Shown here: positions 4,107 to 25,871 of the stretch, in pieces | Numbering within the stretch: the first letter of the stretch is position 1 | Layout: every line of letters begins with the position of its first letter | Source of the DNA: an uncultured Verrucomicrobiae bacterium | GTDB lineage: Bacteria > Verrucomicrobiota > Verrucomicrobiia > Limisphaerales > JAFGQR01 | DNA length: 64,000 bases | Reading direction: 5' to 3' | NCBI GenBank assembly: GCA_963788655.1 | Contig: CAWBHS010000057.1 | Location: 1-64,000 of the forward strand | Notes under the pieces: generated by a model | Seen by the model: only the letters and a program-made list of their open reading frames with translations | Database searches by the model: none | What the model was told of the DNA's origin: nothing | Program-made: the position numbers and the translations under genes

Positions 4107-4316
4107 AGCGCGGATACCCTTATCCGCGCTTCGATCCGCTCCCGTTGTTCGACCGCGCGGCGCCAGGCGATGGAGGCGCGAAGGGTTGGATGCTTTCGCT
4201 CCGGCCGCCATTCGTTCCGCCCGCTTTACGGGCGGGGGACGCCGCAGCGCGGCATCCCCCACCAGCCGCCGCGCAGGTTTTCCGACTTGCCGTATCGCCG
4301 ATTTCCCCGTCGGCAG
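4107..4316. repeat. Cluster of REP-like palindromes in an intergenic region
   Basis: Perfect hairpin AGCGCGGATA-ccct-TATCCGCGCT (4107-4130), hairpin GGGGGACGCCGC-agc-GCGGCATCCCCC (4234-4260) and a third palindromic unit at 4271-4316. Confidence 0.6.
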
Positions 4317-4411
4317 CCGTCTGCGCGCCGGGCGCACCAGGCGAATTGGAACCTGTGATTGTCCATTGCACATTGAACGGCACTGCGGATACAAACCGCT
4401 TAGCGAAAACC

Positions 4412-6321: not shown

Positions 6322-6368
6322 TTGGCCTGACCGGTTCTCCGGCCGTTCGCGAAGACAGAACAAATACC

Positions 6369-7448: not shown

Positions 7449-8305
7449 ATGACGACTATTTCGCTTCTGGGTGCCGGCGGCAAAATGGGCTGCCGCATCA
7501 TCGATCACCTGAAAGACCATCCAGTGTACCGTCTGCTTTGCGTCGAAGTCGGCGAGGCGGGCCTGCAAAACCTGGTCCAACGCGGTCTGCCTCCCACCCC
7601 CATGCCAGCGGCGCTGCCGCAGGCGGACGTGGTGATCCTGGCGCTGCCGGACCGTGTGCTCGGTCGCGTGGCGCGCGAGGTGGTGCCGCAGCTCGGGTCG
7701 GGAACCCTGGTCATCACCCTGGATCCGGCGGCGGCGCACGCGGGAGAGTTTCCGATGCGTCCGGACATCAGCTATTTTGTCACGCATCCATGCCATCCCG
7801 GCGTGTTTGACTACGAGGACGACGCCGAGGCGCGGGCGGATTTTTTGGCGGCACCAAGGCGCGAATGCCCATCGTGTGCGCGCTCATGCAAGGCCCCGAG
7901 GCGCACTATGCGTTGGGCGAGAAACTGGCCCGCGAATTCTTTGCGCCAGTCACGCGCGCCCATCGCATCAGCGTCGAGCAAATGGCCTTGTTGGAGCCGG
8001 CCATGGCGGAGACGGTTGGCATCGCCTTGATCACTGCGTTGCGCGAGGCGCTGGAGGAAGTCGTCAAACGCGGCGTGCCCCGGGCGGCGGCCGAAGATTT
8101 TCTTTACGGCCACATCAAAGTGCCGCTCGGCATCGCCTTCAATCGCGTGGATTTCCCCTTCTCCGACGGGGCCAAGCTGATCGGTGAGTACGGACGTCAG
8201 CGCGTGTTGAAGAGGGACTGGAAAAGGGTGTTCGAACCGGACAGCGTGAAGGAGCAGGTCCGAGTCATTGTGTCCGGCGAATTGCCGCCCTCACCCCAAG
8301 GCTGA
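7449..8305 (+). CDS. apnO: D-apionate oxidoisomerase (one frameshift near 7845)
   Basis: ISLLGAGGKMG.R, LDPAAA.AG, YFVTHPCHP, IVCALMQGPE..Y, EQMALLEP, A.DFL.GH, FSDG motifs. Confidence 0.8.
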
Positions 8306-8308
8306 ACG

Positions 8309-9184
8309 ATGCGACTCGGGATCGGAAGCTACACGTTGACCTGGGCCGTCGGGGTGCCCGGCACTCCGCCCACTCGGCCGCTGAGCGCGTTGGACCTGAT
8401 CGAGACGGCGGCACAACTCGGCGTGCCGGTCGTTCAATTTTGCGAAAACCTGCCGTTGGTGAATCTGCCGGAGCCGGAGTTGGAACACTTCCATCAACGC
8501 GTGCGAGAACTGGGGTTGGAGGTGGAATTAGGCACCCGCGGTCTCGAACCCGAGCACCTCCGCGCTCATCTGCGCCTGGTACAACGGTTCGGAGGACGCT
8601 TTCTGCGCGTGGTCATCGACCGTCCCGGCGACGAGCCTTCGGCGGAAGAAGCGGTGGCTCGGTTGCACCTGATTCTGCCCGAGTTCGAAGCGGCCGGGGT
8701 GCGTGTGGCCCTCGAGAACCATGACCGATTTCGCAGCACGACGCTGGCGCGGATGGTCGAGCAACTGGGCCACCAGCGCGTCGGAATCTGTCTCGATACC
8801 GTGAATTCGTTCGGAGCGATGGAAGGGCCGGAAGTCGTCGTCGAGAACCTCGGCGAGTTCACGCTCTGTCTGCACGTGAAGGATTTCACCATTCGCCGCG
8901 TGAGCCACCAGATGGGCTTTGTCGTGGAAGGATGTCCGGCGGGTCGGGGCCGCCTCAATGTGCCTTGGCTGCTCGAGGCGCTAACGAAGAGTCCGCATCC
9001 GTTCAACGCGGTTCTTGAAAATTGGGTTGTGCCCGGCAATTCTGTGGAGGAAACCATCCGCCGCGAACGCGCCTGGACCGAAGAGGGCCTGCGCTATTTG
9101 CGCGGGCTGATCCGCGAGCGCGATCCATCCGTCGATGGGCCGGCTGGACGCGGGAACCGGTTGCGATGCGAGAAGTCATTATGA
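8309..9184 (+). CDS. oiaC: Xylose-isomerase-like TIM-barrel protein, probable 3-oxo-isoapionate decarboxylase
   Basis: LGIGSYT..WA.G, ELGTRG, ALENHDRF, GICLDTVNSFG..EG, LHVKDF motifs. Directly follows apnO. Confidence 0.65.
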   Translation: MRLGIGSYTLTWAVGVPGTPPTRPLSALDLIETAAQLGVPVVQFCENLPLVNLPEPELEHFHQRVRELGLEVELGTRGLEPEHLRAHLRLVQRFGGRFLRVVIDRPGDEPSAEEAVARLHLILPEFEAAGVRVALENHDRFRSTTLARMVEQLGHQRVGICLDTVNSFGAMEGPEVVVENLGEFTLCLHVKDFTIRRVSHQMGFVVEGCPAGRGRLNVPWLLEALTKSPHPFNAVLENWVVPGNSVEETIRRERAWTEEGLRYLRGLIRERDPSVDGPAGRGNRLRCEKSL

Positions 9185-10199
9185 ATCGAATGATAAAGAA
9201 ACTTCTGCGGGGCGGCTGTTTGTCGCTCGCCTTCGTCCTCACCTGGGCCGGTTGCAGCCCGTCCGGCAACTCCTCGGGCGGCAGCAGCGGCGCTCCGCAA
9301 ATGACAGTAGGCGTGGCGTTCGAGACCCTGCAAACGGAGTTCTGGGTGGCGGCGCTGGGCGCGTTCCGGGATGAACTGGGCAAACGCCATATCAAAATGA
9401 TTGAAGCCATCGCCGACGGCGACGCCAACCGCCAACTCGAACAGGTGAGGAATTTCATCACCCGCAAGGTGGACGGCATCGTCGTGGTCCCCAAAGACGC
9501 CAAGACCATCATTCCCGCCATCAAGGCGGCCAACCAGGCCAACATCCCCATCGTCTCTTCAACCGTCCGCCCGGACAAGAGCGAGCGCGCGTCCGTGACG
9601 GTGGTGGCGGACAACTACGCCATCACCAAGGCCACGGTCGAGTACATGGTCCAGCAGGCCCGGAAGACCGGCCGCAAGCACAAGGCGCATGATTCTCATC
9701 GGCGACTTGGGTGACATCAACGCCATCGGCCGGCGCGACGGTTTTGAGGACGTGGTGAAGCAACATCCCGACATCATCGACGTGGTGGCCCGTGTGCCAA
9801 CGGAATGGAACCAGGAGAAGGCCCAGGCGGGCGTGGTCAACGCGCTCCAGGCCAATCCCGACATCAGTTTCATCTTCACGTCGTCGGACTTCCTTTTCCC
9901 GTCGATCGTCTCGGCGCTCAAGGCGGCCGGCAAATACAAGAAGATCGGCGAGCCCGGCCACGTGTTGCTGGGCGGCTTCGACGGCGACGCGACGGCCTAC
10001 CAGATGTTGGTGGACGGATACCTCGACGCGACGGCGTGCAGGATGTGTATTTCGAGGCCGAGGCAGCGTGCAGGCGCTGCTGGATTTGAAGGCCGGCAAA
10101 CCGGTGGCCGAGCGATCGAAGACCCAGGCTTCGTCATTCAACAAGGCGAACCTGAAGCAAATGGCGCCGCGCATGTGGGGCGCGAAGGTGAAGCAATAG
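9181..10199 (+). CDS. Sugar ABC transporter substrate-binding lipoprotein (frameshifted)
   Basis: Lipobox LTWAGC and RbsB-like motifs (DGIVVVP, AIKAANQANIPIV, NAIGRRDGF, GGFDG). Confidence 0.85.
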
Positions 10200-10242
10200 C
10201 CGATCCGACCCGACTCGCCAACGCTTACCGCAACCCATTTGC

Positions 10243-11246
10243 ATGACCGCCGATGGCCATCACGAAACGACCGCTCCGAACCGGCGAATGGCTTCGTCCG
10301 GTTGTTGCTCTCGGAATACCTCGTTCTGGTGCCTGAGCGCGGCTTGGTTTTCTGCGTCCCTGCCGTTTACCCCCGGATTCGCCTCGCCGGAAAACCTGGG
10401 CAACATCTGTGCCAGCATGTTGCCGTTGCTGGTCGTGGCGATGGGGCAGACGCTTCGTCTTGATCATCCGGGGGGATCGATCTGTCCGTCACTTCGACCA
10501 TTGCGTCTGGCCAGCGTGGTGGGCGCGCAGGTGATGACCGGCGACACCGGTTGGCTGGCCGGAAGCCCTGGGCCGCGCCGGCGGGATCGTCGCGATGCTC
10601 GCGGTCGGCGCCGCGGTGGGCGCGTTCAACGGGGCAGCGGTCACGCGCCTCCGGATGCCGCCGTTCATTGTCACGCTCACCACGATGATGTTCGTCAGCG
10701 GCTTTGCCATCTGGCTCACGCAGTCGAAGAACATCAGCGACTGCCCACCGCCTTCATCGCTCATCGGCAGTAACAACGGCCGTGGGCTTTGCTGGTGACG
10801 CGGGACCGTCGCCGTGTCGCGCATACGTTGTTCTGAGCCGGACCCTCTATGGGCGCTGGCTTGTACGCCACCGGCCACAACGCCCGGACCGCCCTCATCT
10901 CCGGAGTGCCGGTGCGGCGGGTCACGTGCCTGGTCTATATCGTCTGCGGTCTCTGCGCGGCGGTGGCATCGGTTCTTTACACCGGCCGTCTCGAAACCGG
11001 GTCGCCGGTCATGGCCAGCGCATCCTCCTCGACGTCATCGGCGCCACCGTTATCGGCGGCACCAGTCTCTTCGGGGGGAAAGGCAAAATCCTGTGGACCA
11101 TCTTCGGCGTCCTGTTTCTGGCCTTGATCGACAACAGCCTCAACCTGCTCAACATCTCCTATTTCACCATCATGATGGTCAAGGGAGGAGTCATTCTGCT
11201 GGCGGCGGTGATGGACTCGCTCCGCAATCAACTGGTGGCGCGATGA
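10243..11246 (+). CDS. Sugar ABC transporter permease (frameshifted)
   Basis: RbsC-like motifs: [45 protein letters not shown]. Confidence 0.85.
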
Positions 11247-11295
11247 CCCTTGAGACGCTCCATCCCGCCGGACCGCGCGCTTGCAGAATCGTGTC

Positions 11296-12828
11296 ATGAG
11301 TTCTCCCAACTCCATTCTTCAGTTTGAGCGCGTGACGAAGCGCTTCTTTGGCGTCCCGGCTCTCCAGGATGTCAGCTTTGCCGTCGAACGCGGGCACACG
11401 CTCGGAATGGTGGGTGAAAACGGAGCGGGGAAATCCACGCTCATGAACATCCTGGGCGGCAATCTCCAGCCGGACGCGGGAGCAATGCAATTGAACGCGC
11501 AGCCTTACGCCCCGCGTCACCCGCCAGACGCCGCCCGGCACGGTGTGGCGTTCATTCACCAGGAGCTCAACCTGTTTGGCAATCTCAGCATCGCCGAAAA
11601 CCTGTTCCTGACCGCCTTCCCCCGGCTGGCCGGTTTGCCCGTCGTCCACCGCAAGGCGCTCCACCGGCGGGCCGCCTCGTTGCTCGAGCAGGTGGGATTG
11701 GACATTCCGCCGCAGACCCTCGTCGAGAAACTGTCCGCCGGTGAACAACAACTGGTCGAAATCGCCAAGGCCCTCGGCCTCGAGGCGCGCCTCATCATTT
11801 TCGACGAACCCACCACCTCGCTCACCAGCCCGCGAAACGGACCGGCTCTTCGCGTTGATCGACCAACTCCGGCACCGCGGGCTGTCGCTCATCTACATCT
11901 CCCACAACCTCGACGACGTGCTGCGGCTGTGCGACGACATCGTCATTCTCCGCGACGGTGAAGTGGTGGGCCGCGGTCCGCGTTCCGAATTCACGCTCGA
12001 CCGGTTGGTGTCGCTCATGGTCGGCCGCAGCATCACGCAGCTCTTTCCCCCGCGCGCCACGGTTCCCGGTCACGAACGCTTTGCTGGAAGTGCGGGGGCT
12101 CTCGCAGCCCGGATGGTCAAGGACATGAGTCTCACGCTCCATCGAAAGCGAAGTGCTGGGCTTGTCCGGCCTGATGGGCTCGGGCCGTTCCGAACTGGCG
12201 CGCATCGTGTTCGGTCTCGATCCCTTCGGGCGCGGGGAGGTCCTGTTGAAAGGCAAGCCCATCGCGCCCGCACCGCGACGCAACATCCAACGCGGCCTGG
12301 CCTTCCTGACCGAGAACCGCCGCGAAGAAGGTCTGTGTCTGGAAGCCGCCATTGCCGAGAACATCGCCCTGGTGACCCTGCCCAATCACGCCGGAAACGC
12401 CGTGGGTTGGCTCGACCGCCTGGGGCTGCGGCAGGCGGTGCATCGAATTCGTCAAGCCGTGCGGCTGACGCCGGCGTGCCCGCAATAACGCGCCCGTCAA
12501 GACCCTCAGCGGCGGCAATCAGCAAAAGGTGGTGCTGGCCAAGTGGCTGTTGGCCAAGCCTGCGGTCTTCATCCTGGACGAACCGACGCGCGGCATCGAC
12601 GTCGGCGCCAAGTCCGAGATTTACCAACTCATCAATGAACTGTCCGAGCGGGGCGCCGGCGTGCTGGTCATCTCGTCGGAGATCGAGGAACTGATCGGCC
12701 TCTGCGACCGCATCCTCGTGATGAGCCACGGAGAAATTCGCGATGAAATCCCGCGTGCCCAATTCGACCGCGAACGAATCTTGCGCGTCGGCCCTGCACG
12801 AACGCCCCTCGTCTCCGCCGCTTCGTGA
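11296..12828 (+). CDS. Sugar ABC transporter ATP-binding protein, two ABC domains (frameshifted)
   Basis: [50 protein letters not shown]. Confidence 0.9.
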
Positions 12829-13832
12829 AGACCTCCCGCGCCCATCGGCTTTTGCTGGCGCTGAACAGCGCGCCGTTGCTCTTGTTTGTCGGCGTCTTCC
12901 TGATGTTCGGCGCGCTGTCGTCCCGCTTCCTCGAGCCGCAGAATCTCGTCAACATTCTCGATCCAATCCTCCTCCATCGGCATCGTGGCCATTGGCATGA
13001 CGTTTGTGCTGCTGACCGCCGGCGTGGACCTTTCGGTCGGGGCCATCATGTTCGTGGCGGCCGCCATTGCCGGCAAATTGACCTTGCACGGCGCGCCCTG
13101 GGGTTGGCCCTGGCGGTGATCATCCTCGTCGGCCTGGCTTGCGGCCTGATCAACGCCTTCTTCATCACGCGGCTGCGGATCGTGGCGTTCGTGGTCACGC
13201 TGGCCACGCTTTACCTGGGACGCGGCTTCGCGCTCTGGCTCACCCAAACCCGGGCGATGAATCTGCCGGAGAGTTTTCTGCGGATGGGCACCACCCGCCT
13301 GCTCGGCATGCCGCTGCCGATCGTGATTCTCGGCGGGCATCCTGCTCGTTGCGCACTGGTGCTGACGCGCACGCCGTTCGGACGGCAGATTTATGCCGTC
13401 GGTCAAAACCTGGAAGCCGCCCGCAAAGCCGGCATTCAACACAGGCCGCATTTTAGTGGCGGTCTATGTCATCAGCGGCTTCTGCGCGGCAGTCGGCGGC
13501 ATTGTGTCGCTGGCCCAGCTCGGCGCGGTGTCGCCCACCTTTGGCATCAACAAGGAATTCAGCGCCATCGCCGCGGCGGTGCTGGGCGGCACCAGCCTGT
13601 TCGGCGGACGCGGTCAACGTGTTTCCCGGCACGTTGCTCGGCGCGGTGCTGATCCAAACCGTCGAAAACGGCTTGGTGATTCTGAACGCCGATCCCTACC
13701 TCTATCCGCTCATCACCAGCGCCATCATTTTCCTGGCGGTGCTGATCGACAGCATGCGCATCGAGCCTCCTGGCCAAGTGGAGCCGGCGGCGAATTCGCG
13801 TCGAGGAATCCGAAACCATTGCCTCATCATGA
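12825..13832 (+). CDS. Second sugar ABC transporter permease (frameshifted)
   Basis: [50 protein letters not shown]. Its stop overlaps the next start (ATGA, 13829-13832). Confidence 0.85.
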
Positions 13833-15837
13833 AGGACCCGCATCGGATCGCCACTTCCTGGCTCGTGTTTGGCAGTCCCACGCCGCCCGTTCCACCGCTC
13901 GCGTTGCGCGCCGGGCGCCTCGAACTTCTCTTCGCGAACCGCCACCGGCTTTGTTCGCCACATCGCGTTGGGACGCCACGAAATCCTGCGCGGCATTTAC
14001 GCGGCCGTGCGGGACCGCCATTGGGGGACCATCCCTCCGCGTCTTTCGAATCTGAAAGTGGACCGATCCGACCAAGCCTTCCGGCTGGCGTTCGACGTTG
14101 AGCATCGCCAGGGCGAAATCGACTTTGTTTGGCGAGGATCGGTGCGCGGAGGCACTGATGGCGTTCTCACGTATGAATTCGATGGCCAAGCCCGCTCGAG
14201 TTTTCTCCGTAATCGTATCGGCTTTTGTGTGCTGCATCCCATTCGTGAATGCGCCGGCGCGCTGGCGCGGCAAACGCGGGTTGATGGGACGGTGATCGAA
14301 GCAAGATTTCCTCAGACGATCGAACCGCAGCTCGTCGGGCAAAGCAGCTTTCGCGACATGCGAGCCGTGGCTCATGAAGTCGCGCCGGGCCTCTGGGCCG
14401 AAGTCGAATTCGACGGCGACGTGTTCGAGATGGAAGACCAGCGCAACTGGACCGACGCCAGCTTCAAAACGTACTGCACGCCGCTGGCCCTGCCGGCCCC
14501 GGTCGAAATTCAGGCCGGCACCCGGATTCGGCAAAGCGTGACGTTGCGGCTGGCGGGAACGATTCCCGAGGAGATTCGGCCGAGTGTCGAAACGACCAAC
14601 GAGAAGCCGGAAAGCATCACCATGACCGTTCCAGACACGCCCACGGCGCGCCTGCCGCAAATCGGTCTGGGCATGGCGAGTCACGGAGAGCCGCTGACGG
14701 AAACGGAGATCGCCCGTTTGCGCCGCTTGCCCCTGACTCACTTGCGCGCCGAGGTGCGGCTATCATCGCCGGACTGGCCGTCCGTCTGGCGGCGCGCGGG
14801 GCGGGAGGCCGGGCAATTGGGAGTCAGCCTCGAACTGGCCCTGCACTTGCCGCGTGAAGGTCGGACAGACTGGCAGGAGTTTCAGCGCCTGCTTCGGGCG
14901 GAACCAGCTCCACTGGCCCGCGTGCTGGCCCTCCGCGACGGCGAAGCCGCGACCACCGCGCAAACCCTTCGGCAAGTGCGTCAGGCGCTGGATGGCTTCG
15001 AGGTTCCCATCGGCGTCGGAAGCGACGCCAACTTCTGCGAACTGAACCGCGAACAGGCGTTGGGACAGGTCCCGCTGGCGGACGCGGATTTCGTCTTCTG
15101 GTCCCTCAATCCGCAAGTCCATGCTTGCGACACTCCTTCCATCGTTGAGAACCCTCGAAGCGCAGTTCGACACGGTGAAGACCGCGCGCGCATTTGCCGG
15201 CGGCAAACCGTTGCTGATTTCACCGGTGACCCTCCGGCCGCGCTTCAACGCCGTGGCTACGAGCGCTTCCGCGCCGTTGCCTTCGGAGGGATTCCCGCCG
15301 TCGGTGGACCCGCGCCAGCTCAGTCTGTTCGCGGCAGCCTGGACGTTGGGCAGCCTGGCCACGCTGGCTCATGCCGGCCTCGAGAGCGTGACGTTTTACG
15401 AAACGACCGGCTGGCGTGGTCTGATGGAACGTCCGCCTGGTTCGCTACTGCCGGACAAGTTTCCTTCCTTGCCGGGCGGGGTCTTTCCAATGTTCCACTT
15501 GTTCGCCGCGCTGGCTCACTGCGACCGATTTGCTTCCAGCCAGGTGAATTTCCCATTCCGAGTCGCCGCCCTCACCGCCGGGGATGCTGACGGACGTTGC
15601 CATCTGCTGCTGGGTAACTTGACCCCCCAAACCCAGCGCGTTCATCTGCTGCCCCCGGCGGTGGCAGCCCGGTTGTATGTCCTGAATGCCGACAATGTGC
15701 TCGCCGCGCTCTGGGAGCCAGAATCCGTGTGCTCTCAAGCCGGCGAGTGCCTGCCGGCACGCAATGGAGCCATTGAACTGGTAATGCCGCCGTATGCATT
15801 CGCTCGCCTCGAAGAGGCAACTGCTTCTCGACAGTAG
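13829..15837 (+). CDS. apnL: D-apionate lactonase (frameshifted)
   Basis: LRAG.L, EILRGIY.AVRD..WGT, F.RNRIGFCVLHP, FEMEDQRNWTDASFKTY, NF.ELNR, DPRQ.SLFAAAWT motifs. Confidence 0.8.
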
Positions 15838-15931: not shown

Positions 15932-16330
15932 TTAACCTCCGCCGCCCAATTCCTGGTATTGCGCCTTAAAGCAGTGCGAGCACAGGTGCGCGCCATCCAG
16001 AGACAGCGCGGTCAACACGGGCGCCGCGCAGGAAGCGCAACGTTGCTCCTGGTGCTGTCGGGTGTGGAAACCAAGCACCAGCAGGTCGTGGGGCACGTCG
16101 CCCGCCCCCATCGCCTGGTCGCGCAGCACGGCTTCCTCCTCGAACCCCAACCGTTTGAACAGACGCTGCGCGCCGGTTTGATCGGGCGTCATGCGGGCAA
16201 TAACTTTCGTCACGCCTTCCTTGAAGACCATTTCAAATACCAACTCCATAACAGTCGCCCCAACTCGATGCTGCGCGCCGTTTCCGCCACCACCACGCGC
16301 AGTTCGGCCACGTGACGGGTCCAGCGCAGG
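15932..16330 (-). pseudogene. 5'-truncated GNAT acetyltransferase with a C-terminal CxxC...CxxC zinc ribbon
   Basis: WTRHVAELRVVV..AR...LGR.L, frameshift, then K.IARMTPDQ.GA...F..LGFEEEAVLRD...CASC...LCSHC. N-terminus is absent. Confidence 0.6.
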
Positions 16331-16470
16331 TTGCCGCGGTCAAACGTGCCATCGACGCAAATGTCCTTGATGCGATCCGGCGAAACACGGGTGGGATCAG
16401 CCGACAACATCACGAAATCCGCCAACTTGCCCGGCTCAATGGAGCCCTGGTGTTTCTCGGCGAACGCGGC
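16331..16470 (-). pseudogene. C-terminal fragment of an amidohydrolase_3 family gene
   Basis: AAFAEKHQGSIEPGKLADFVMLSADP..V.PDRIKDI.V..T signature over only ~45 codons, joined in frame to the GNAT fragment. Confidence 0.7.
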
Positions 16471-17252
16471 ACTCCCCCATCCAGCGTCCACACCCAGCCC
16501 AGTTTGGTTTCAATCGCCCTACCCGTGAGGTGCTTTCTGACGAACTCCAAATCTTCGTCTCTTATCGGCTGCTCATAGAGCGCTGGGGGCAGCAACCACG
16601 GTGAGATTCCATCGCTCCCGCCGTTAGCCGACTGATTCAAGCGTTCGCAGGCTTCGTCGGCCAGCGTGCTACTTCGATGCCCGATCAAGACCCGCGTCCC
16701 ATGCTCGCCATGAAACCATCCCGCTGGCATTCCAGCCAATCCCGCCTTGGGATGAAATCGGCACCACAACAGCCGCACCAGCGCCCGGTGGAGGTGCATT
16801 ACCTGCGCACCTAAAGGTCCAGCGAGTTTCCAACCGGGCTCCAATGAATCCAGAACGGCCAATTCCAATCCAACGGGCTGCGTCCTCCACGCCAGAAAGC
16901 GCTTTGGTCCCTGCCAGACTCCGGCCCGATTGAATCGTGGCTTCAGCGTCAGCAATAGTTCAGCTTCCCGCCGAATGGCGGCCGATTCATCAGCGCACTC
17001 CTCCCAAGCGATGCGCTCAACCAAAGACAGCAAACGCAGCGTCCGACGTTTCATCCGTTCTGGATTCGCAACCCGATAGCTCCCCAGACGATGGCGGAGA
17101 CTTTTCGCTTTGCCCACATACAGCACGTTATTGGTTGCCCCATGCATGAGGTAAACGCCCGGCGCTTCCGGCAACTGCCGGAAAAAGTCCCGGCCCAACC
17201 GCTCGACCAGTGGTTGCGGATCAGGCCAAAGGCGTTGCTGCTGCGCTCGCAC
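16410..17252 (-). CDS. GIY-YIG nuclease family protein (UvrC N-terminal/Cho-like domain)
   Basis: LPEAPGVYLM....VLYVGKAKSLR.RL.SY...E..A..REAELL...KPRFN. The 3' end reads into the amidohydrolase fragment. Confidence 0.85.
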   Translation of the reverse strand: MRAQQQRLWPDPQPLVERLGRDFFRQLPEAPGVYLMHGATNNVLYVGKAKSLRHRLGSYRVANPERMKRRTLRLLSLVERIAWEECADESAAIRREAELLLTLKPRFNRAGVWQGPKRFLAWRTQPVGLELAVLDSLEPGWKLAGPLGAQVMHLHRALVRLLWCRFHPKAGLAGMPAGWFHGEHGTRVLIGHRSSTLADEACERLNQSANGGSDGISPWLLPPALYEQPIRDEDLEFVRKHLTGRAIETKLGWVWTLDGGVPRSPRNTRAPLSRASWRIS

Positions 17253-17369
17253 GGTCTTGCGTCATAGGAAAGTGAATATCCCCCAGATGATGAAAGGGGT
17301 AGATGCGATGGCCGCCCTGTGGCAGCAAGGCCGGTCGGCTCCACCTCGGCCCCGTCCACCGGATAGGTC

Positions 17370-17570
17370 TGGAGACAGTGCCTCCACCTGCCCGACCACA
17401 GGTGTCAATTGCGTGCTGAATGGCGGCGGACGGATTGGCGGTTCCGGTTTCACCGCTCAACAGAGGATTAGCCAGCCCGAAGGCGGACGCCGTCAGGGCT
17501 AGGTTGCGCAGTGCTTTCCGCAGGGAAAACTGGACAGAAGGCCGGCGCAACAGCAACGGACAGTTCATCA
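17370..17570 (-). pseudogene. N-terminal remnant of a secreted GH28/pectate-lyase-fold enzyme
   Basis: Signal-like segment followed by AAIQHAIDTCGRAGGGTV, the usual start of the beta-helix, after which homology is lost. Confidence 0.5.
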
Positions 17571-17634
17571 AGCGGTGATCCATAACGCCGGAAGCCTAAC
17601 CCAGATGGGACCGCGCCGCGATCAAAATTCGTGC

Positions 17635-18000
17635 TCAGTGCCCACCAGTGACCGGATAACCTTCACGGCGCAAATCCTCCGCCAAATCGATCTCCATTTG
17701 CACCGCCGCTTCAAAGGGCATTGGATTCAAGTGGTCGTAAAGTCCCGGCTCCAAACGAACGCCGTACCGCTGCACAACCGATGCAGCTTTGATCCCCGCT
17801 TTGTGATTGGCGAAGCGTTCTTCCGGGGTCCGCCCGGTCATCCCAACATAAGCACTGGGCTTCTCGGGATCGGCATTGGGATTGGCCAGACGGACAGAAC
17901 GAAGGCGGCCAGCGGCGAGTTGGAGTAGCACGGCGTAAACGTTGTGGTGAAGGTCAGGAGGGCTCTTTGGCAGATGGAGCTTGTGCAGTCGTCGTTTCAT
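17635..18000 (-). CDS. Small stand-alone GIY-YIG-like nuclease
   Basis: HHNVYAVLL...YVGMTGRTPEERFANHKAG...A..ME..LA..LRREGY.V.GGH. Start ATG at 18000 overlaps the upstream stop (ATGA). Confidence 0.75.
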   Translation of the reverse strand: MKRRLHKLHLPKSPPDLHHNVYAVLLQLAAGRLRSVRLANPNADPEKPSAYVGMTGRTPEERFANHKAGIKAASVVQRYGVRLEPGLYDHLNPMPFEAAVQMEIDLAEDLRREGYPVTGGH

Positions 18001-18215
18001 GGTTCTGATTTCGCCCGCTGCGACCACCGGTACGCCGTCTTGCTACTCAGGTTAAAAACCCGTTCCTCTGCCGCCCGGCCTTGGACTGTGGCGAGCGGAG
18101 CGAACCGTGAGCTTACCGGCCAATTGCTCGCATAAATGAGCCGCTCCGGGCCAAACATCTCCCGCATCGCAGCTAGCACTGGGCGGTAAAACTCCATGAG
18201 CCGGTGCGTCGCGTT
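17997..18215 (-). pseudogene. C-terminal fragment of an amidohydrolase_2 family gene
   Basis: FYRPVL....EMFGPERLIYASNWPVS...VF...K.AYRW. The N-terminal ~250 aa are missing and there appears to be an internal deletion after TVQG. Confidence 0.65.
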
Positions 18216-18347
18216 CGAATGGATCCCGGATCAAGGCAGCGCTTGGGTCCGGCTCAAGGCGCGCCGCACGTTCCTGTGGCGCATTCGTTGCTCGATAGTG
18301 GCGGTTGTTGACTGGTCCGGCCGCCAGTTGACCGCACAAGGCCACTG

Positions 18348-19166
18348 GTGGAGGTCATCTTGAAAAAAATGACTACTTTGTGGAACGGCCAACCCTCCGG
18401 GCCCCCTGGCGAGCCCGTCACGATCCAGGCATCGAAAAAGCCCGCGCCCAAACTCACGCCGGAGCAGCACGGCTCGCCTGGCGAAAAGTTCGCCGGCACC
18501 GATCGAGAACCGCTTCAGCGCGAGAAAGAGCCCTTGTCCGCCGAAGCCCGGCGGGAACTGCGCGAGCAGGACAATGCGCTCAAGGCCATGACCGGCCCGA
18601 CGCCGCCCTCGACCGGAGTAAAATTCGTCATGGTTGAGGCCGCCTTCGTTAAGTTGATCTGCGCCGGCCACGAGCCGGAGATTGTCACCGAATCTGAGCG
18701 TTCGACGCTGCGGCAGCTTCAGGGCGACTATTCGCGCCTTGAAAAGGAACTGATGAGACACGTCGGCTCCAGCGCGTCGGTGGCTTTCCAAGAGCAGCAA
18801 GCTTTGATTGCCGCGGCGGCGAAGGCCGGCGAGGAGGCTCCAGCCGGCGCTTGGGATCTGGAAGATTTTCGCGCAGACCATTGGCAGCGGCGAAAAGCAC
18901 TGGCGTCTGAAATGCGAGCCGTCGCCGCCAGCGCGATTCCGATTGCCGCCGCCGTGGCAGAACGCATCGCGAGCCTGGCCGGAAAACTGGCAGCCACAGT
19001 CGAAGAGCAAGAGCGTAAACACTTCGAGCGGTTCGGGATGCCCGTGGAATACACCCTCATTGCCAAAAAGCTGCGCTCCCTTGAAGTCCATTGGCGACAA
19101 CTAGTGCCTTCCAGTGGAGGCACACCGCCGAGCAAAATTCTACTATTCTCCGGTCTGGCGGTTTAA
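18348..19166 (+). CDS. Hypothetical alpha-helical protein upstream of the capsid gene (possible scaffold); start may be TTG 18360 or ATG 18369
   Basis: Intact 272-codon ORF with GGAGG before TTG 18360. Pro-rich N-terminus and A/E/R-rich helical body. Ends 21 nt before the capsid gene. Confidence 0.7.
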   Translation: MEVILKKMTTLWNGQPSGPPGEPVTIQASKKPAPKLTPEQHGSPGEKFAGTDREPLQREKEPLSAEARRELREQDNALKAMTGPTPPSTGVKFVMVEAAFVKLICAGHEPEIVTESERSTLRQLQGDYSRLEKELMRHVGSSASVAFQEQQALIAAAAKAGEEAPAGAWDLEDFRADHWQRRKALASEMRAVAASAIPIAAAVAERIASLAGKLAATVEEQERKHFERFGMPVEYTLIAKKLRSLEVHWRQLVPSSGGTPPSKILLFSGLAV

Positions 19167-19187
19167 CAGTTCAACCTCACCATTTTT

Positions 19188-20294
19188 ATGAAAAATTCAT
19201 CCATCATTTCTGAAAGTCCGCGTTCCGTCATCTCCGCCCTCGAGCGCACCAACGGGCCACTGAAAGCGTGGCGCGCAGGTTCGCGGATCGATCCGCAAAC
19301 CATTGCCGATTGCGCAATCGAGCGAGCCAATATCATCTCGGCAAACCGTCCGATTTTGGAGAGCATCTGGAACACGAACACGATTGACGCGACACTCAAA
19401 CAGGATGTCATTCTCCAGGACATCATCCGCGATTTCGCGAACATTCTGCTGCCGCTGAGAGCCTTCTCGACGGTGTTTCAGAATGTGCCACTGGCGGGGA
19501 CGAAAACCGTGCAGGTTCCCTTCTATGATCTCGACACGACTGCGAGCACGGCATTCGTGGCCGGCACCGGTTACACGACCATCGGCAACACCACCGTGGA
19601 CATCCGACCTATCATAGTAGGATTGGGCGCCACCAACGGCGGGCGCTACTTCCAGGCGCTGTCCTTCACGTCGGAGGAACTGAACTTCCAGCCCTACTTC
19701 AACACTGTTCAAGCGGCCAGGCTGAAGGCCGAAGCCCTGGCGACTGACATCATCGCAGATGTGCTAAGCGTGGTGACTGAGGAAAATTTTGGAGGCGCCG
19801 CGCTGACCAAAGCCGCCAGCATCATCGAAAGCGATGACATCGCCGGATTGGTTGACGATTGTAAATCTTGGCCGCGCGCTGGGCGTAGTCTGTTCGTGGA
19901 TACGGCCGTCCATGCCAGCCTATTGAAAGACCCCTACATCAAATCCGCGATGAACTCGGGCGATCAACAGGCCATCCGGGAAGGTGTGATTCCGCGAATT
20001 CATGGTTTCGACTATTACGAGAATCCGAACATCCCCAGCAACTCCGAGAACCTGATCGGGTTCGCGTCCTTCGTGTCCGCGATCCTGTTCGCCTCGGCCC
20101 CGTGTCCACCCATCGATGAAGTGCGCAAAGCCGGCACGATGTATCAGGTGGTGGTCGATCCCCAAACCGGCATTGCCTTCGAGTACCGTTCGTTTGGGGA
20201 CAACGTCACCGACGCCGCCACGCGGGTGATCGAATGCAGTTACGGCTGGGCCAAGGGCAATGGCAGCGCCCTGAAGCGCATCGTCAGCTCGTAG
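19188..20294 (+). CDS. Phage major capsid protein (HK97 fold, P22-coat-like family)
   Basis: G.KTVQVP E-loop pattern, WP..GRSL.VD...HA.LLKD, AIREG.I.RIHGFD.YE.P.IP, DP.TG...EYR, EC.YG.A motifs. Followed by an intrinsic terminator. Confidence 0.8.
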   Translation: MKNSSIISESPRSVISALERTNGPLKAWRAGSRIDPQTIADCAIERANIISANRPILESIWNTNTIDATLKQDVILQDIIRDFANILLPLRAFSTVFQNVPLAGTKTVQVPFYDLDTTASTAFVAGTGYTTIGNTTVDIRPIIVGLGATNGGRYFQALSFTSEELNFQPYFNTVQAARLKAEALATDIIADVLSVVTEENFGGAALTKAASIIESDDIAGLVDDCKSWPRAGRSLFVDTAVHASLLKDPYIKSAMNSGDQQAIREGVIPRIHGFDYYENPNIPSNSENLIGFASFVSAILFASAPCPPIDEVRKAGTMYQVVVDPQTGIAFEYRSFGDNVTDAATRVIECSYGWAKGNGSALKRIVSS

Positions 20295-20315
20295 ATTTTT
20301 GGGTTGGTAAGTTGG

Positions 20316-20345
20316 CCCGGCAGGCAAGTGTCTGCCGGGTTTTTT
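20316..20345 (+). terminator. Rho-independent terminator after the capsid gene
   Basis: CCCGGCAG-gcaagtgt-CTGCCGGG-TTTTTT. Confidence 0.85.
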
Positions 20346-20357
20346 CAGGAAACAATT

Positions 20358-21654
20358 ATGCAAAAAGAACTAAAAGTTGTCCTCGGACTCAACCAGAAAG
20401 GTTTTGCGGCGGGGCTGAACAATGCGCAGAACAAGCCGCGCAAATTCGCGGGCGAACTTGGACGATCAACCTTCGGACAATTCTTGGGAGCGACCGGCGT
20501 AATCCGGGTATTTGATTTTTTAAAAGCTCAACTCGTTTCCATGATAGCGGAGGCCAAAGAGCTAACGAATCTGAACGAAATTTTCGGCGGCGGAAGCAAC
20601 TGGATTCAGCAGACAAAAATGGATGCTGAGGATGCAGGAGTGAGCCTCAACGAACTGCGTTCGTCCTTCGGTGCGCTGTCAGCCAGCGCGCAAAAGGCGA
20701 TGGCCGGCGGACCTGAAGGAGAAAAGTTCATCGATGCTTTGCGAGGATTCGGTTTGACGCTTGGCGACATCCAGGCCATGCGGCCCTACCAAATATTTCG
20801 AACGCATCAGAACGTCAATAGTCGCCACGGGCGGTGCGCTTGCAATGAGCACCGAGCAAATTGCGAAATACAAGCGACTCGGTTTTCTGGTCGCCCAATT
20901 GCCCCTGTTCGCCCGGCCAGAGGGCCAGAATGCGTTCTATGCCGACCCGCCCGATCTAATTGAACGTCGTGCCCAAACCGAGGGATTCTTCACCGGATTG
21001 TGGCGTGGCACCAAAGCCATCTTCAGCAATGCTGCTGACTGGTGGGATCAATCCATTGCGAGTATTGGAAACACGAAATTCATGCAGCGACTCCTGCCCG
21101 AGCAACCCGGATTGCTGGAACCGATGCCCGCCGATTTCACCAAGGAACAGGCACGACTCAACGCGGAGCGAGCCGCCCGCCAGGCAGAGCTTGACCGTCG
21201 CAAGGCCGAAGGAAACGCCAATGCCGCCGAACTCGCAAAGCTGGAGTTGTTGGTGCAAGAGATCGACGCCCAGGAAAAACTCCTGCTGCCCGTCGAAAAG
21301 CGGATCGAATTGCTGAAGGAAGAAATCCAACTGCTCAAGGAGAAGCCGACCAGCACCGTGGAGGAAACGCTTAAGAACGATCTGGCCGCCGTAAAACTCC
21401 AGGTGCAACTCCAGGCGATGACCAAGGCCACCGACGCGACCGCGAAGCAAGTGCCGATGACCTACCCGAACATCGGCAGCCTCTCACAGATCGGAGGATT
21501 CATCGGTGGTTCACTCAGTATGATTAATCCGAATCTGCGCGTCTCCGAGAACCAACTGGCGGAGTTGCGCCGGATCAATGATGGAATCGGTCGGGTTGTC
21601 GAGAACACCCGCCCGCGCAACGACTCGGGTTTTGATCCTTCAGGCTGGCTTTAG
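20358..21654 (+). CDS. Short tail tape-measure-like protein (~430 aa, one frameshift near 20795)
   Basis: N-terminus MQKELKVVLGLNQKGFAAGL resembles tape-measure starts. Contains AEDAGVSL..L, F..LRGFGLTL.DIQ.M.P.QIF, a long coiled coil and a C-terminal SL.QIGG...QL.ELRRI. Confidence 0.6.
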
Positions 21655-21833
21655 TCCTCGGTCATGCCCATTTTTTGACGGTAAGCTTGCACCTCAGACG
21701 CGCGATAAAGAATGAGCCGCGCATTGTGCCGGACTGGCCGCAGCCCGAACCGTTCCTCATTTCGGCGCACGGTTTCCACAGACACCTCAAGGATCTGCGA
21801 TACTTCCTGGCGGGTGATATATTTTCGAGCCAT
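21651..21833 (-). CDS. Small helix-turn-helix DNA-binding protein (excisionase/MerR-like)
   Basis: YITRQEVSQILEVSVETVRRNE...R.ILYR.SEV, 60 aa. Confidence 0.75.
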   Translation of the reverse strand: MARKYITRQEVSQILEVSVETVRRNEERFGLRPVRHNARLILYRASEVQAYRQKMGMTED

Positions 21834-21987
21834 GGTGAATTTTTACCCGAGCCCGCCGCAGACGCAACCATTCGCGGACGCAAAAAAAGCCCCGCTCGTT
21901 TTGCCCCACAACGCGCCGGAAGTCCGGGATGTATCAGCTTTACACCACCCCAGGCAGAATCGTGGCGTGGCGTTGCACGTGGGCACG

Positions 21988-22014
21988 AAAAAGCCCCGGC
22001 TTGATGGCCGGGGC
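21988..22014 (-). terminator. Rho-independent terminator downstream of higA
   Basis: Minus strand GCCCCGGC-catcaa-GCCGGGGC-TTTTT. Confidence 0.85.
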
Positions 22015-22038
22015 GTAAGTAATTGAGTGCTGCAATCT

Positions 22039-22365
22039 CTAAGCTACCGCCAATTCCGGCAGAGGTTTCACCTGCCGTTCAATTTCATCCTCACTGCGTA
22101 GCCGCGCAGTTTCCAGATCGTAATCCGCCTGGATACCCATCCATAATTCTGGCGAAACGTTGAAAAGGCGTCCCAGCTTCAACGCCATCTCCGCACTTAC
22201 GGACCGTTTGCATCGACAAATCTGGCTAATCGCAATGGGAGTGCTTCCTGTCGCCTTAGCTACCGCGTAATAGCTGAGCCCCAATGGTTCCATGAAATCT
22301 TCTCGTAACACATCTCCTGGATGCACAGGATTAAGTCGATCTTTGCGTCTGCTCATAACATTCAA
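22039..22365 (-). CDS. higA: HigA family antitoxin
   Basis: PVHPGDVLREDFMEPLGLS...KRSVSAEMALKLGRLF..SPELWMGIQ..YDL. Confidence 0.95.
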   Translation of the reverse strand: MNVMSRRKDRLNPVHPGDVLREDFMEPLGLSYYAVAKATGSTPIAISQICRCKRSVSAEMALKLGRLFNVSPELWMGIQADYDLETARLRSEDEIERQVKPLPELAVA

Positions 22366-22643
22366 TGGTAGTCCACGATTTCAACTTGCACCGCGTTGCC
22401 GTCTTCCCAGCGAAAGCAAATGCGCCACTGGTTATTGATGCGGATGCTATGCTGACCCTTACGGTTGCCCTTCAGGGCTTCCAAGCGGTTGCCAGGCGGC
22501 ATCTTCAAATCGTCTATGACACAGGCCCGGTGCAAATACTCTAATTTCCGACGGGCAGTGTTCTGAATTCCAGGCGGCAATCTCCGGGAACGCTCGCCCC
22601 GGAAGATTCGCTCTGTCTCCGCACACGCGAAGCTCGTAATCAC
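22362..22643 (-). CDS. higB: HigB (RelE/ParE family) toxin
   Basis: ITSF...ETERIF.G...PPGNRLEALKGNRKGQHSIRINNQWRICFRW....A..VEIVDYH. Confidence 0.95.
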   Translation of the reverse strand: MITSFACAETERIFRGERSRRLPPGIQNTARRKLEYLHRACVIDDLKMPPGNRLEALKGNRKGQHSIRINNQWRICFRWEDGNAVQVEIVDYH

Positions 22644-22649
22644 AAAGCC

Positions 22650-22677
22650 ATAGTATCGCGTCGCGATAATAATGCAA
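22650..22677 (-). promoter_or_regulatory. Sigma-70 promoter of higBA with an overlapping palindromic operator; probably leaderless
   Basis: Minus strand TTGCAT-16-TACTAT, then 6 nt, then the GTG start. Palindrome TATCGCG-N-CGCGATA at 22654-22668. Confidence 0.8.
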
Positions 22678-22885
22678 GTATAAAATGCACATTAATTGCG
22701 TATTGACTGCGCATCACGTCATTCCTGTTTTTGCGGCCCCGGCGCCGGATGCAAGCTGCCCCACAGCGCGCCGGCAGTCCGGGACGTGTCAATATGCGTT
22801 CCCAAGGCGGAGCATGCGAATGGATGCAAGCACGACTTTGCCCCCACGCGCGCCCGGACGGTTGGAATTGGCGAGGCGGACCCGC

Positions 22886-22914
22886 ATGGCCAAAAGTGGC
22901 CCATAAGTGGCCCA
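22886..22914. repeat. Tandem direct repeats resembling integrase arm-type sites
   Basis: AAGTGGCCCA at 22894-22903 and 22905-22914, preceded by a degenerate ATGGCCAA, about 90 bp from the tRNA 3' end. Confidence 0.6.
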
Positions 22915-23000
22915 GACATGATTTTCTCAAGGAAATTTTCACCCTGTTTTTCAGCGTCATAAAACGCTCTAAAGCATTGATTTTATTGGATTTCTTGAAG

Positions 23001-23076
23001 TGGTGGGCCCAGACGGATTTGAACCGCCGACCAAGCGATTATGAGTCGCCTGCTCTAACCGCTGAGCTATGGGCCC
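23001..23076 (-). tRNA. tRNA-Ile2 (CAT anticodon, lysidine type)
   Basis: GGGCCCATAGCTCAGCGGTTAGAGCAGGCGACTCATAATCGCTTGGTCGGCGGTTCAAATCCGTCTGGGCCCACCA: full cloverleaf, encoded CCA, GGGCCC acceptor stem and CTCATAA loop. Confidence 0.93.
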
Positions 23077-23637: not shown

Positions 23638-23917
23638 GGTTCAAATTGGAACGGATTCAACCGGGCACTGAAACAGAAAAGGGCAGTTTCACAGCCGCGC
23701 AATTCACAGTTCGGCGCGGAGCCATGAACGCTTGGTAATCCTCCCGCACCGGCCGGTCCCGTTTCGGGATCCGCGGCCAGATCGAGCCAGCCGGTGACGA
23801 ACAGTTTCTCGCGCGTGCTGGGCCGGCCAAAGAAATGCCTGGCAAAGCAAAAAACGCCTTGCCAGGCAGGCAGATGTTTCCAGTGGGACGGTTCTGCGTG
23901 GCGCTCCTGCTGAATCC

Positions 23918-25823
23918 TTAAACCGCTTTTTCAGTTTCCAGAAATCCCTGCAACTGGCGAATGCGCGTCGGGTGCCGCATTTTGCGCAAGGCTTTGGCTT
24001 CGATTTGGCGGATGCGTTCGCGGGTGACTTTGAACTGCTTGCCCACTTCCTCCAGGGTGCGTGAATAGCCGTCGCCCAGATCCGAAGCGCAATTCGAGAA
24101 CCTTGCGCTCGCGCTCCGTAAGGCTCGACAGCACATCGCTCAGTTTCTCTTTGAGCAGGCTGTAAGCTGGTCATGTCCGAGGGGTTCTCGGCGCCCTTGT
24201 CCTCGATGAAATCGCCGAAATTGGTATCTTCGCTGTCGCCCACCGGGCGATTGCAGGGAGATGGGCTGCTGGGCCATTTTCGAGACGGCCCGCACGCGGT
24301 CGACCGGCAACTGCATTTCGTCGGCGATTTCCTCCGGGGTGGCTTCGCGGCCGAAGTCCTGCGACGAGCTGTTTTTGCACCCGCATGAGCTTGTTGATCG
24401 TCTCGATCATATGCACCGGGATGCGGATCGTGCGCGCCTGGTCGGCGATGGAGCGGGTAATGGCCTGGCGAATCCACCAGGTGGCGTAGGTGGAGAACTT
24501 GTAGCCGCGGCGGTATTCGAATTTTTCCACCGCCTTCATCAGCCCCATGTTGCCTTCCTGGATGAGGTCGAGGAAGGAAAGGCCGCGGTTGGTGTATTTT
24601 TTGGCGATGGAAATGACCAGGCGGAGGTTGGCTTCCACCATTTCCGTCTTGGCCTGCAGCGCCTTGGCGGCAAAATGCTTCAACTGGTCGTAGCGTCGTA
24701 GATACTCGTCGGTACGGCATGCGCACGAATTGCTTCCAAGGCCGTGATCTTCTTCTCCTCGCTGACTGATAACGGCCTGCTGTTGCGGTGCTTTTGCGCT
24801 GCGCTTTCCATTCTTGATGGTGCGCAGTGCTCAGTTGGATTTTGTCGTGGATATTCTCCGCCACCAGGGCCATTTCTTCGATGACCTTCTGTTTGAAGTA
24901 GAATTTGGAAAAGCTTTCCTGGAGTTTGCGATCCACCTTTTTGAAGGCGCTTGATTTCCCGCTCCTGCGCTTTGCCGCTGGGAGCCGTACTGCCATTTCG
25001 CGTATTTATCATCGACCTGCGCATCCAGCGTGCGCACGGTCTTGACCAACTTGCGCAGATCACGCAGGTGTTCCTCGCGGCTTTCGATCTTCTTGTCCAC
25101 GATCACCCGATCAAACCGTTCTTTGGGCGGCTCGGAAATGAGTTTTTCGGCCAGGGCAATGTGCTCCTTGCCGGCAAAGCCGAAACTGTAAATGATTCGT
25201 TTCAGTTCGTTCTCTGCGCTTTCGATACGTTTGGAGATTTCGACTTCCTGTTCGCGCGTCAGCAAAGGGACCTGGCCCATTTGCTTGAGGTACATGCGCA
25301 CCGGATCGTCGAGAATATCCAGGCGGCTTTTGTCCTCTTCTTCCTCGCGTTCCGGTTGTTTGACCCGGTCCACTTCGGCTTGGTCGACGATCTCGACCTC
25401 CAGATTGCGGAGTTTGATATAGATCTCATCGAGATCATCTGCCGTCACAATATTTTCGGGCAGCGCGTCGTTAATATCGTTATAGGTCAAATAGCCCTGC
25501 TCCCGGGCCAACCGTAACAATTCTTTAACTTTCTCGTCGAGCTCAAGGCTGACTGCGGGTTTGTGGTCGCTGCGGACGGGTTCCGCGCGCGCCACCTCAT
25601 GCTTGGGTTTGGGCATCTGTTTTTTTGTTGTCCTGCTAAATTTTTTGGTCGTTCGTGGCGCTGGCTGCGGACGGCGTTTCACCGGAAGCTTGGCCACCGG
25701 GGACTGGGTACGCTTGCGAACGCGTTTCCCGGCGGTCTTGCGGCTGGCTTGTTTCGCTGCCCTTAAAATGGTTGGTCGGCCGGACTGGTGAACGGCCGAC
25801 TTTCTAACCTTCGATTTAGCCAT
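23918..25823 (-). CDS. rpoD: RNA polymerase primary sigma factor (multiple frameshifts, likely sequencing errors)
   Basis: [13 protein letters not shown] (region 1.1), [67 protein letters not shown]. Confidence 0.95.
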
Positions 25824-25871
25824 ATAAAATCAGTGATGCGATCCTGCGCAACGTTGCTAAATGAGCCGGGA

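Follow-up and report, generated by a model that had tools for sequence, protein, structure and literature searches.

A capsid and tape-measure gene module beside a tRNA-Ile2 gene in a Verrucomicrobiae bacterium, possibly the remnant of a satellite-like element

The window, a stretch of 64,000 nucleotides (positions 1 to 64,000 of contig CAWBHS010000057.1, assembly GCA_963788655.1, from an uncultured Verrucomicrobiae bacterium), harbors a 4.7-kb phage-like element, bounded on the left by a truncated host gene (~18231) and on the right by a tRNA-Ile2 gene, whose 3′ end is at 23001. On the plus strand the element carries an open reading frame (ORF) here called X, a major capsid gene, a terminator-like hairpin and a tape-measure gene. 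These are followed on the minus strand by a gene for a small helix-turn-helix (HTH) protein and by the toxin-antitoxin pair higBA. A first-pass annotation, made from the letters alone, had described this arrangement as a minimal element, either a satellite that borrows parts from a helper or a domesticated interference module. The co-oriented helical protein, HK97-fold capsid and terminator on which that description was built are all present according to the ORF list, AlphaFold2 models, Foldseek searches and RNA folding. Our analysis of the locus and of its relatives suggests, with about even confidence, an immobilized remnant of a small tRNA-integrating, satellite-like element, of a kind that is found intact in an acidobacterial genome.

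The gene at 19188–20294 (+) encodes a protein of 368 aa that is an HK97-fold major capsid protein, by family as well as by fold. It matches the PHROGs families phrog_283 (“major head protein”, E 2.1e-15) and phrog_267 (E 1.5e-9). Its AlphaFold2 model, computed from 26 sequences, has a predicted local distance difference test (pLDDT) score of 86 and a predicted template modelling (pTM) score of 0.83. Foldseek returned 364 PDB matches to this model at E≤1e-3, with phage HK97-fold capsids on top, and the best match in BFVD is “Major capsid protein Gp5” (TM score 0.82, root-mean-square deviation 3.2 Å). There are 39 homologues, the closest with 55% identity. Judged from its sequence, the capsid gene shows no sign of decay. 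With five rows dropped as partial or long-branched, 52 positions are conserved in ≥85% of 50 other family members; the protein keeps 48 of them, which is mid-range for a family spanning 65–100%, and its terminal branch of 0.34 falls inside the family range (median 0.21).

An HK97-fold protein could also form an encapsulin-like shell, with X as its cargo or partner. An encapsulin is found among the weaker Foldseek matches in the PDB (9fy6, E 4.7e-9), and the available text of one report describes portal-less small elements whose HK97-fold proteins share encapsulin domains (PMC13669383). This reading is very improbable given that the best sequence and fold matches are all phage capsids, that 15 of the 19 related loci described below hold the homologue in a head module, that a tape-measure gene follows, and that the protein has no Pfam match at E≤0.01, and thus none to a Pfam encapsulin family.

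Downstream of the capsid gene, a terminator-like hairpin with a U6 run lies at 20314–20345 (+). It has 12 pairs and a loop of 4, with a folding energy of −25.2 kcal/mol that 2 of 200 shuffles reached (z −3.48), and is not listed by a simple terminator consensus scan. The next ATG (20358) follows the capsid stop (20294) after 63 nt, as first reported.

That ATG opens the tape-measure gene (20358–21654, +). The first-pass annotation described it as a single gene of ~430 codons, but it consists of two overlapping ORFs in different frames, 20358–20963 and 20761–21654, which supply the first 147 and the last ~285 residues, respectively. Comparison with collinear relatives places one surplus base near 20799–20800, where the frames part. 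Read through, the protein would be ~431 aa long, and both halves are collinear with three relatives of 395, 530 and 549 aa (P0044–P0046). A full HMMER scan with the N-terminal piece found 56 proteins at E≤1e-3 (132–730 aa; median 429 aa), so that the tape measure is of ordinary length for its family and not “miniature”, as had been proposed.

The assignment of this gene to the tape measures rests on homology to the N-terminal domain of annotated tape-measure proteins. Tape-measure PHROG matches were obtained for 44 of 50 scanned proteins, namely the window piece and 49 of its 56 relatives; P0050, P0073, P0074, P0078, P0080, P0084 and P0097 were left out as short or as matching outside the N-terminus. 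The window piece itself has no PHROG match. It does match the tape measure of a related prophage (L017), which scores E 9.6e-19 against phrog_9483, and a C-terminal motif is common to the tape measures of the window, of L017 and of the two compact loci introduced below (L005 and L013). The tape-measure similarity claimed for the protein starting at 20358 is therefore upheld. The position of the gene is unusual, as a tape-measure gene ordinarily has tube and chaperone genes ahead of it and distal tail genes behind it; here the capsid gene lies 5′ and a convergent HTH gene 3′. A word-indexed search with the C-terminal half found itself alone, and neither half, nor the L005 tape measure, has a tblastn match among 50,697 phage records. 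A tape-measure profile run against PDB sequences returned only designed helical repeat proteins, which were taken as chance.

The break in the tape-measure frame may be an assembly error, because nearby genes are split in a similar way while their residues are conserved. Both rpoD (23700–25830) and a sugar ABC transporter operon (binding protein, ATPase and permease; 9000–14100) are distributed over many frames with strongly conserved residues, and the window holds uninterrupted ORFs of 1,487–2,949 aa at 28–64 kb. From the sequence, the splitting of rpoD and the transporter genes looks like a locally indel-rich assembly rather than a group of pseudogenes.

ORF X extends from an ATG at 18369, with GGAGG upstream, to 19166 (+; 265 aa), or from a GTG at 18348 (272 aa). 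Its codon-position GC contents (GC1/2/3) of 0.68/0.49/0.68 show a coding-type periodicity. GC3 is 0.68–0.73 in X, the capsid gene and the C-terminal half of the tape-measure gene, 0.57 in the N-terminal half of the latter and 0.68–0.77 in host genes. Overall GC content was rejected as a marker of the element boundary, host genes at 22–28 kb being equally low in GC. The AlphaFold2 model of X is all-alpha over residues 58–245 (mean pLDDT 64), with the first 55 residues disordered. X is called scaffold-like here by its position alone. Apart from X itself, nothing was returned by a word-indexed search of 5.8 billion proteins, and the ESM Atlas yielded no usable match; Foldseek against BFVD had 0 matches at E≤1e-3, and neither Pfam nor PADLOC gave any. 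The single, weak PHROG match is to phrog_28721, a family of unknown function (E 1.1e-3).

The HTH gene (21651–21833, −; 60 aa) is convergent with the tape-measure gene and overlaps its stop. Its product matches MerR_1 (E 1.1e-4), HTH_17 (E 6.4e-5) and the “excisionase” family phrog_66 (E 1.3e-4), in agreement with its first description as excisionase-like, and has a weak match to the PADLOC model mad1 (E 3.7e-5). Next follow higA (22039–22365, −), encoding an HTH_3 antitoxin (PF01381, E 4.8e-8; phrog_1381, E 1.7e-20), and higB (22362–22643, −), encoding the toxin (PF05015, E 1.3e-20; phrog_3066, E 1.1e-34). With the toxin gene first and an overlap of 4 nt, the pair is a HigBA type II toxin-antitoxin system, as had been recognized. 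A terminator-like hairpin 3′ of higA (21993–22014, −; 8 GC pairs and a T-run in the consensus scan) lies between higA and the left copy of a repeat.

This repeat has two copies with a 29-nt core, at 21904–21932 and 22759–22787 (+; pattern search and alignment). With flanks the copies extend to ~37 nt at 33/37 identity, and each holds a short palindrome with a 5-bp inverted repeat. The pattern matches twice in the window and in no shuffle did it match twice. The copies had been likened to arm-type integrase sites. The repeat itself is real, but each copy stands upstream of a minus-strand gene (the left ~70 nt from the HTH gene, the right ~115 nt from higB) and there is no integrase to bind them; in appearance they are closer to a shared operator, or to a promoter region that was duplicated. 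The higBA pair may be an unrelated insertion, as it comes with a terminator of its own and with the repeat in its upstream region.

The tRNA gene at 23001–23076 (−; Rfam tRNA, 71 bits) has a CAU anticodon and its 3′ end points toward the element. ARAGORN labels the CAT-anticodon tRNA as Met. In 5,426 E. coli genomes the genes that match it best (88% identity over the full length) are annotated tRNA-Ile, which supports the Ile2 assignment made at first pass.

At the other end, the junction between host and phage-like DNA lies at about 18231–18347, where an amidohydrolase gene is truncated. What remains of this gene is a C-terminal Amidohydro_2 fragment (18000–18230, −; PF04909, E 1.8e-6) covering only profile positions 224–266 of 289, and the pieces to its right have no amidohydrolase match in Pfam. 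The fragment belongs to a region at 15935–18230 (−) of gene fragments and small nuclease-like ORFs, which includes a GNAT piece and C-terminal pieces of Amidohydro_3 and Amidohydro_2, a GIY-YIG protein of 280 aa and a weakly GIY-YIG-like ORF of 130 aa.

No integrase, terminase, portal, protease or tail-tube gene was found, either among 67 stop-to-stop pieces at 13.4–19.2 kb searched with Pfam or among 55 pieces at 13.8–19.2 and 21.7–23.2 kb searched with PHROGs. The first-pass statement that the element encodes no packaging or integration machinery thus stands. Nor is an attachment (att) repeat present: allowing up to 3 mismatches, the 32-nt tRNA 3′ end occurs only once in the 64 kb. A 14-nt exact match to the tRNA end at 11959 would bound an “island” of 11,037 bp, close to the 11,035 bp of the intact element described below. 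It lies in frame inside an ABC-transporter ATPase gene, without similarity beyond the 14 nt, and was discarded as chance. Of the two marks of a tRNA-integrating element, an integrase (sought at 13.4–23.2 kb) and a far direct repeat of the tRNA end, neither was found here; both are present in L005. No helper prophage is in view within the window.

It is conceivable that the unit functions in its present form, whether as a minimal satellite that is still mobilized or as a domesticated module that poisons phage assembly and is kept by higBA. Both X and the capsid gene are intact, only one extra base keeps the tape measure from being full length (a break that may be an assembly artifact), the GC3 values of the three genes fall mostly within the host range, and a toxin-antitoxin pair is adjacent. 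Intactness, however, is by itself no proof of function. The unit has no integrase, att repeat, replication gene, small terminase or recognizable packaging signal; X, the capsid and the tape measure match no PADLOC defence model; and higBA, with its own terminator and repeats, is perhaps a separate arrival. We consider a functional unit unlikely.

Relatives of the locus were collected by a pattern scan, with a capsid alignment as query, of 185,579 species-representative genomes. It returned 19 loci, 15 of them, judged by record title, from metagenome-assembled genomes (MAGs) of Verrucomicrobiota. The nearest relatives available as DNA are 34–46% identical in protein, a distance at which synonymous changes would be saturated. 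In 15 of the 19 (L002–L004, L007–L011 and L014–L020) a terminase, a portal and/or a head protease gene stands beside the capsid homologue; two others (L006 and L012) are on contigs of less than 2 kb. Alone among the 19, the remaining two (L005 and L013) are compact, with X followed by the capsid gene, a single small ORF and the tape-measure gene. The spacing between capsid and tape-measure genes is 757 nt in L005 and 785 nt in L013, compared with 63 nt in the window and 1.3–7.2 kb in those prophage loci, 10 in number, in which the two could be located (for L002 the “tape measure” so counted is an ORF of 1,541 aa without a family match). The synteny that the first-pass annotation had proposed to look for, a compact helical ORF, capsid and tape-measure unit without portal or terminase, thus recurs, and the relatives are not confined to full prophages.

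L005, from a MAG of Candidatus Angelobacter (Acidobacteriota in the NCBI taxonomy), is on a contig of 135 kb and is an intact integrative element. Its ends are marked by perfect direct repeats of 29 nt at a distance of 11,035 bp, the right one being the 3′ end of a tRNA-Glu gene, and it is flanked by host two-component genes and xseA. A tyrosine integrase gene (PF00589; phrog_1, E 1e-23) adjoins the tRNA and an HTH_17 gene lies at the opposite end, so that an integrase at an element end, also anticipated at first pass, is found together with a tRNA att site. Between the ends are X (8885–9541, 218 aa), the capsid gene (9569–10888, 439 aa), an ORF of 127 aa, the tape-measure gene (11645–13135, 496 aa; weak tape-measure PHROG matches), a gene for a protein of 933 aa and a few small ORFs. 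The 127-aa and 933-aa proteins have no family match, and the latter has no PDB sequence match; from their positions one might guess at a chaperone and a hub, respectively. No terminase, portal, protease or tube gene was found in the element with PHROGs or Pfam, and it would therefore be able to spread only by means of the parts of a co-resident phage, which makes it satellite-like. PHROG matches at 2720–5008 suggested a primase or helicase; Pfam identifies this gene as a hybrid histidine kinase of the host. Near the HTH end, six tandem 12-nt repeats (7796–7890) lie inside an ORF of 167 aa and could be origin iterons or encode a repetitive peptide.

L013, from a Verrucomicrobiia MAG, consists of X (4858–5379, 173 aa), the capsid gene (5413–6834, 473 aa), an ORF of 214 aa and the tape-measure gene (7619–9097, 492 aa), with host genes directly upstream of X. 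The two compact loci share 65% identity in the capsid and 33% in X (E 3.7e-18), and their tape measures match at 3e-35 with phmmer. This divergence implies that the compact order has been kept over a long time. In three of the prophage-type loci, L002 (4447–6669), L015 (8912–11110) and L003 (27–1781), protease, scaffold and capsid form one ORF of 584–740 aa. The capsids of L005 and L013 correspond to residues 287–732 of the L015 fusion, that is, to the fusion minus its protease.

X appears to be distantly related to the ORFs in the same place in the compact loci. Aligned with hhalign to a profile of the ORFs upstream of the capsid gene in L005, L013 and L012, it gives a probability of 62% (E 7.4e-5) over 141 columns. 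The alignment extends to the C-terminus of both partners, with a common Ser-Gly...Pro-Pro-Lys motif near the end, and phmmer gives E 2e-4 against ORFs of related loci. A tblastn search of the 15 prophage-type loci returned no homologue of X. The capsid ORF and X share one frame in three of four loci (window 18348–20294, L005 8885–10888 and L013 4858–6834; not L012), separated by one stop codon and 7–11 codons; the chance of three in four was estimated at ~0.1. As far as the reading frames indicate, readthrough to an X-capsid fusion is conceivable. In L012, on a contig of 1.9 kb, a helicase-C-like ORF (1270–1953) overlaps the 3′ end of the capsid ORF, which runs to 507 aa, and this locus may be a chimeric or frameshifted assembly.

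The window thus resembles L005 in its gene order, in the near-adjacency of capsid and tape-measure genes, and in having structural genes that run toward a tRNA whose 3′ end faces the element. On this likeness we base the reading introduced above, in which the window holds an immobilized remnant of a small tRNA-integrating, satellite-like element of the L005 kind; we put the likelihood of this at about one half. The window copy would then be a stranded piece, because it has no integrase or att repeat, counterparts of the 127-aa and 933-aa genes on either side of the L005 tape measure are missing, the host gene on its left is truncated and its tape-measure gene is frameshifted. It does not look like a working “minimal satellite”.

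Several observations weigh against a kinship with L005. The window capsid is distant from those of L005 and L013 (41–42% identity) and in the capsid tree falls in a separate clade of 11 rows. The other 10 are metagenome proteins seen as sequences alone, so that a compact state of the window's own capsid lineage is presumed rather than shown. The same tree groups L005 and L013 with the full phage L015, without resolving the branching among the three. The N-terminal domain of the window tape measure is closer to that of the full prophage L017 (E 1e-6) than to that of L005 (E 0.002; both in a small database). The match of X to the L005/L013 family is weak, at the 62% probability given above. The window also has neither the small ORF between capsid and tape measure nor the 933-aa gene, and its HTH protein shows no similarity to that of L005 and is placed differently. 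Compact loci number only two, one of them on a contig of 9.3 kb, as against 15 of 19 with terminase, portal or protease genes. All of these elements are known from their genes alone, and no evidence of a helper phage or of particles was found for any of them.

Several of these points would fit a full tailed prophage at tRNA-Ile2 that was reduced by several deletions, with the integrase, the terminase-portal-protease block, the head-tail and tube genes and the distal tail genes all lost, and the capsid and tape-measure genes brought together by chance. Normal head modules are the rule among the related loci, the best locus match of the window tape measure is the full prophage L017, and the window capsid corresponds to the C-terminal 366 residues of the protease-scaffold-capsid fusions of L002 and L015. 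The fragments of Amidohydro_2, Amidohydro_3 and GNAT genes that litter the surroundings, the lack of an integrase or att repeat and the frameshift in the tape-measure gene are likewise what decay of a prophage would leave. Such a history, however, needs at least two internal deletions with clean ends, one of which must have left the whole capsid gene and its terminator 63 nt before a complete tape-measure gene. It would also have to explain why the gene 5′ of the capsid is X and not a piece of a protease or portal gene, when the compact elements have an X-like ORF at this position and none was found in the 15 prophage loci, and why the capsid is undecayed (48 of 52 sites, branch 0.34). We regard a reduced prophage as possible but doubtful.

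If the window does hold the remnant of an L005-like element, a course of events can be proposed by analogy with phage-inducible chromosomal islands of the capsid-forming type (cf-PICIs), Extracellular Prophage-Inducing Particles (EPIPs) and phage-inducible chromosomal island-like elements (PLEs). An intact element would excise by means of its own integrase and HTH protein. A shell would be built on the portal of a helper from the element's own capsid protein, X and the scaffold-like N-terminal stretch that the capsid retains. The helper terminase would then fill this shell, and the element's tape measure would go into the helper's tails. In the window, what is left would be X and the genes for capsid and tape measure, plus an HTH gene that is unrelated, with the integrase end gone and higBA in its place, and the far (left) end would have been lost in a deletion that also clipped the host amidohydrolase gene. 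We infer the dependence on a helper and the order of the deletions from the gene content alone, and the same would apply to any function that the remnant may now have.

A bolder form of this proposal can be framed, in which L005 and L013 stand for an undescribed family of ~11-kb tRNA-integrating satellites in Verrucomicrobiota and Acidobacteriota. The only virion genes of this family would be X, a protease-less capsid gene and a tape-measure module, with which it would rebuild the head shell and tail interior of an L015-type helper; the window copy would be immobile but retained, beside higBA, since its capsid and tape-measure proteins still interfere with that helper. Taken as a whole, this is improbable.

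The rest of the window is chromosomal, with genes for giant HYR-domain proteins, a starch synthase, seryl-tRNA synthetase and a histidine kinase. At 39408–54144 and 58142–63946 (−) are three giant surface-type proteins. Two of them (2,949 and 2,021 aa) have HYR and PASTA domains, the third (1,934 aa) CotH, lamin-tail and Ig domains.

Among isolated phages the closest in capsid protein is Verrucomicrobia phage P8625 (NC_029047). Its gp11, annotated with a domain of the P22 coat type, is 29.8% identical to the window capsid (E 2e-13). P8625 likewise has a short tape measure, of 521 aa. In contrast to the window it is a complete phage of 32.9 kb with terminase, portal and a Clp-like protease, and ~3.3 kb and seven genes lie between its capsid and tape-measure genes.

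Among the closest satellites are the EPIPs, which accompany the Mycolicibacterium phage HerbertWM in Mycobacteriaceae. In the available text of their report, their genes are given as scaffold, capsid, tape measure, HTH, serine integrase, small terminase, head-to-tail adaptor and stopper (PMC12822802). Compared by description, they combine a shell and a ruler of their own, as L005 does. They differ in that a small terminase, an adaptor and a stopper were not detected in L005 or the window, in that the L005 integrase is of the tyrosine type, and in host phylum. Of the gene set so described, the window has only the capsid, the tape measure, an HTH gene and the scaffold-like X. The PLEs of Vibrio cholerae, which produce chimeric tails, provide a precedent for a satellite-encoded tape measure and for the L005 order of small ORF, tape measure and large protein; unlike L005 and the window, they are not reported, in the text available, to have a capsid protein of their own (10.1101/2025.01.29.635557).

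Similarly, cf-PICIs integrate, make their own capsids and take the other virion parts from a helper, as L005-type elements would. In SatelliteFinder, as far as the accessible description goes, their core includes both terminase subunits (large and small), the portal, the head-tail adaptor and the connector, whereas tail genes count as “forbidden” (PMC10085698). The window and L005 lack all of these core genes and, with the tape measure, carry a tail gene. Metagenomes have also yielded portal-less “mini” HK97-fold elements of ~8.75 kb, described in the available text as carrying an integrase, regulators and, as structural genes, only capsid and scaffold; without terminase, portal or tail genes, they are discussed there as possible satellites (PMC13669383). 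By that description they differ from L005-type elements in being found mostly in the human gut and in having encapsulin-type capsid domains, and a tape-measure annotation is given to only a single ORF among them. For the marine VEIMEs (virion-encapsidated integrative mobile elements), no satellite-encoded capsid or tail genes are named in the available text and the term “capsid protein” is absent from the main text of the report (PMC9618062).

A description of the L005-type gene set was not found in the literature on capsid- or tape-measure-encoding satellites or on satellites of Verrucomicrobia, supplements being outside this search. In the sources as available, such satellites have so far come from Vibrio (tape measure) and, in a preprint, from Mycobacteriaceae (both genes). 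If the L005-type elements are real satellites, the class would extend to two environmentally dominant and poorly studied phyla, in a leaner design without portal, adaptor or terminase genes. How a foreign capsid assembles on a helper portal would then become a question that can be asked, and X, capsid and tape measure beside a tRNA gene would serve as an annotation signature for loci that are at present read as “defective prophage”. The window copy, as a stranded piece, matters less on its own. Satellites with both a capsid and a tape measure are already in print; the L005-type gene set represents a new version of them, of which the window copy is at best a degraded member.

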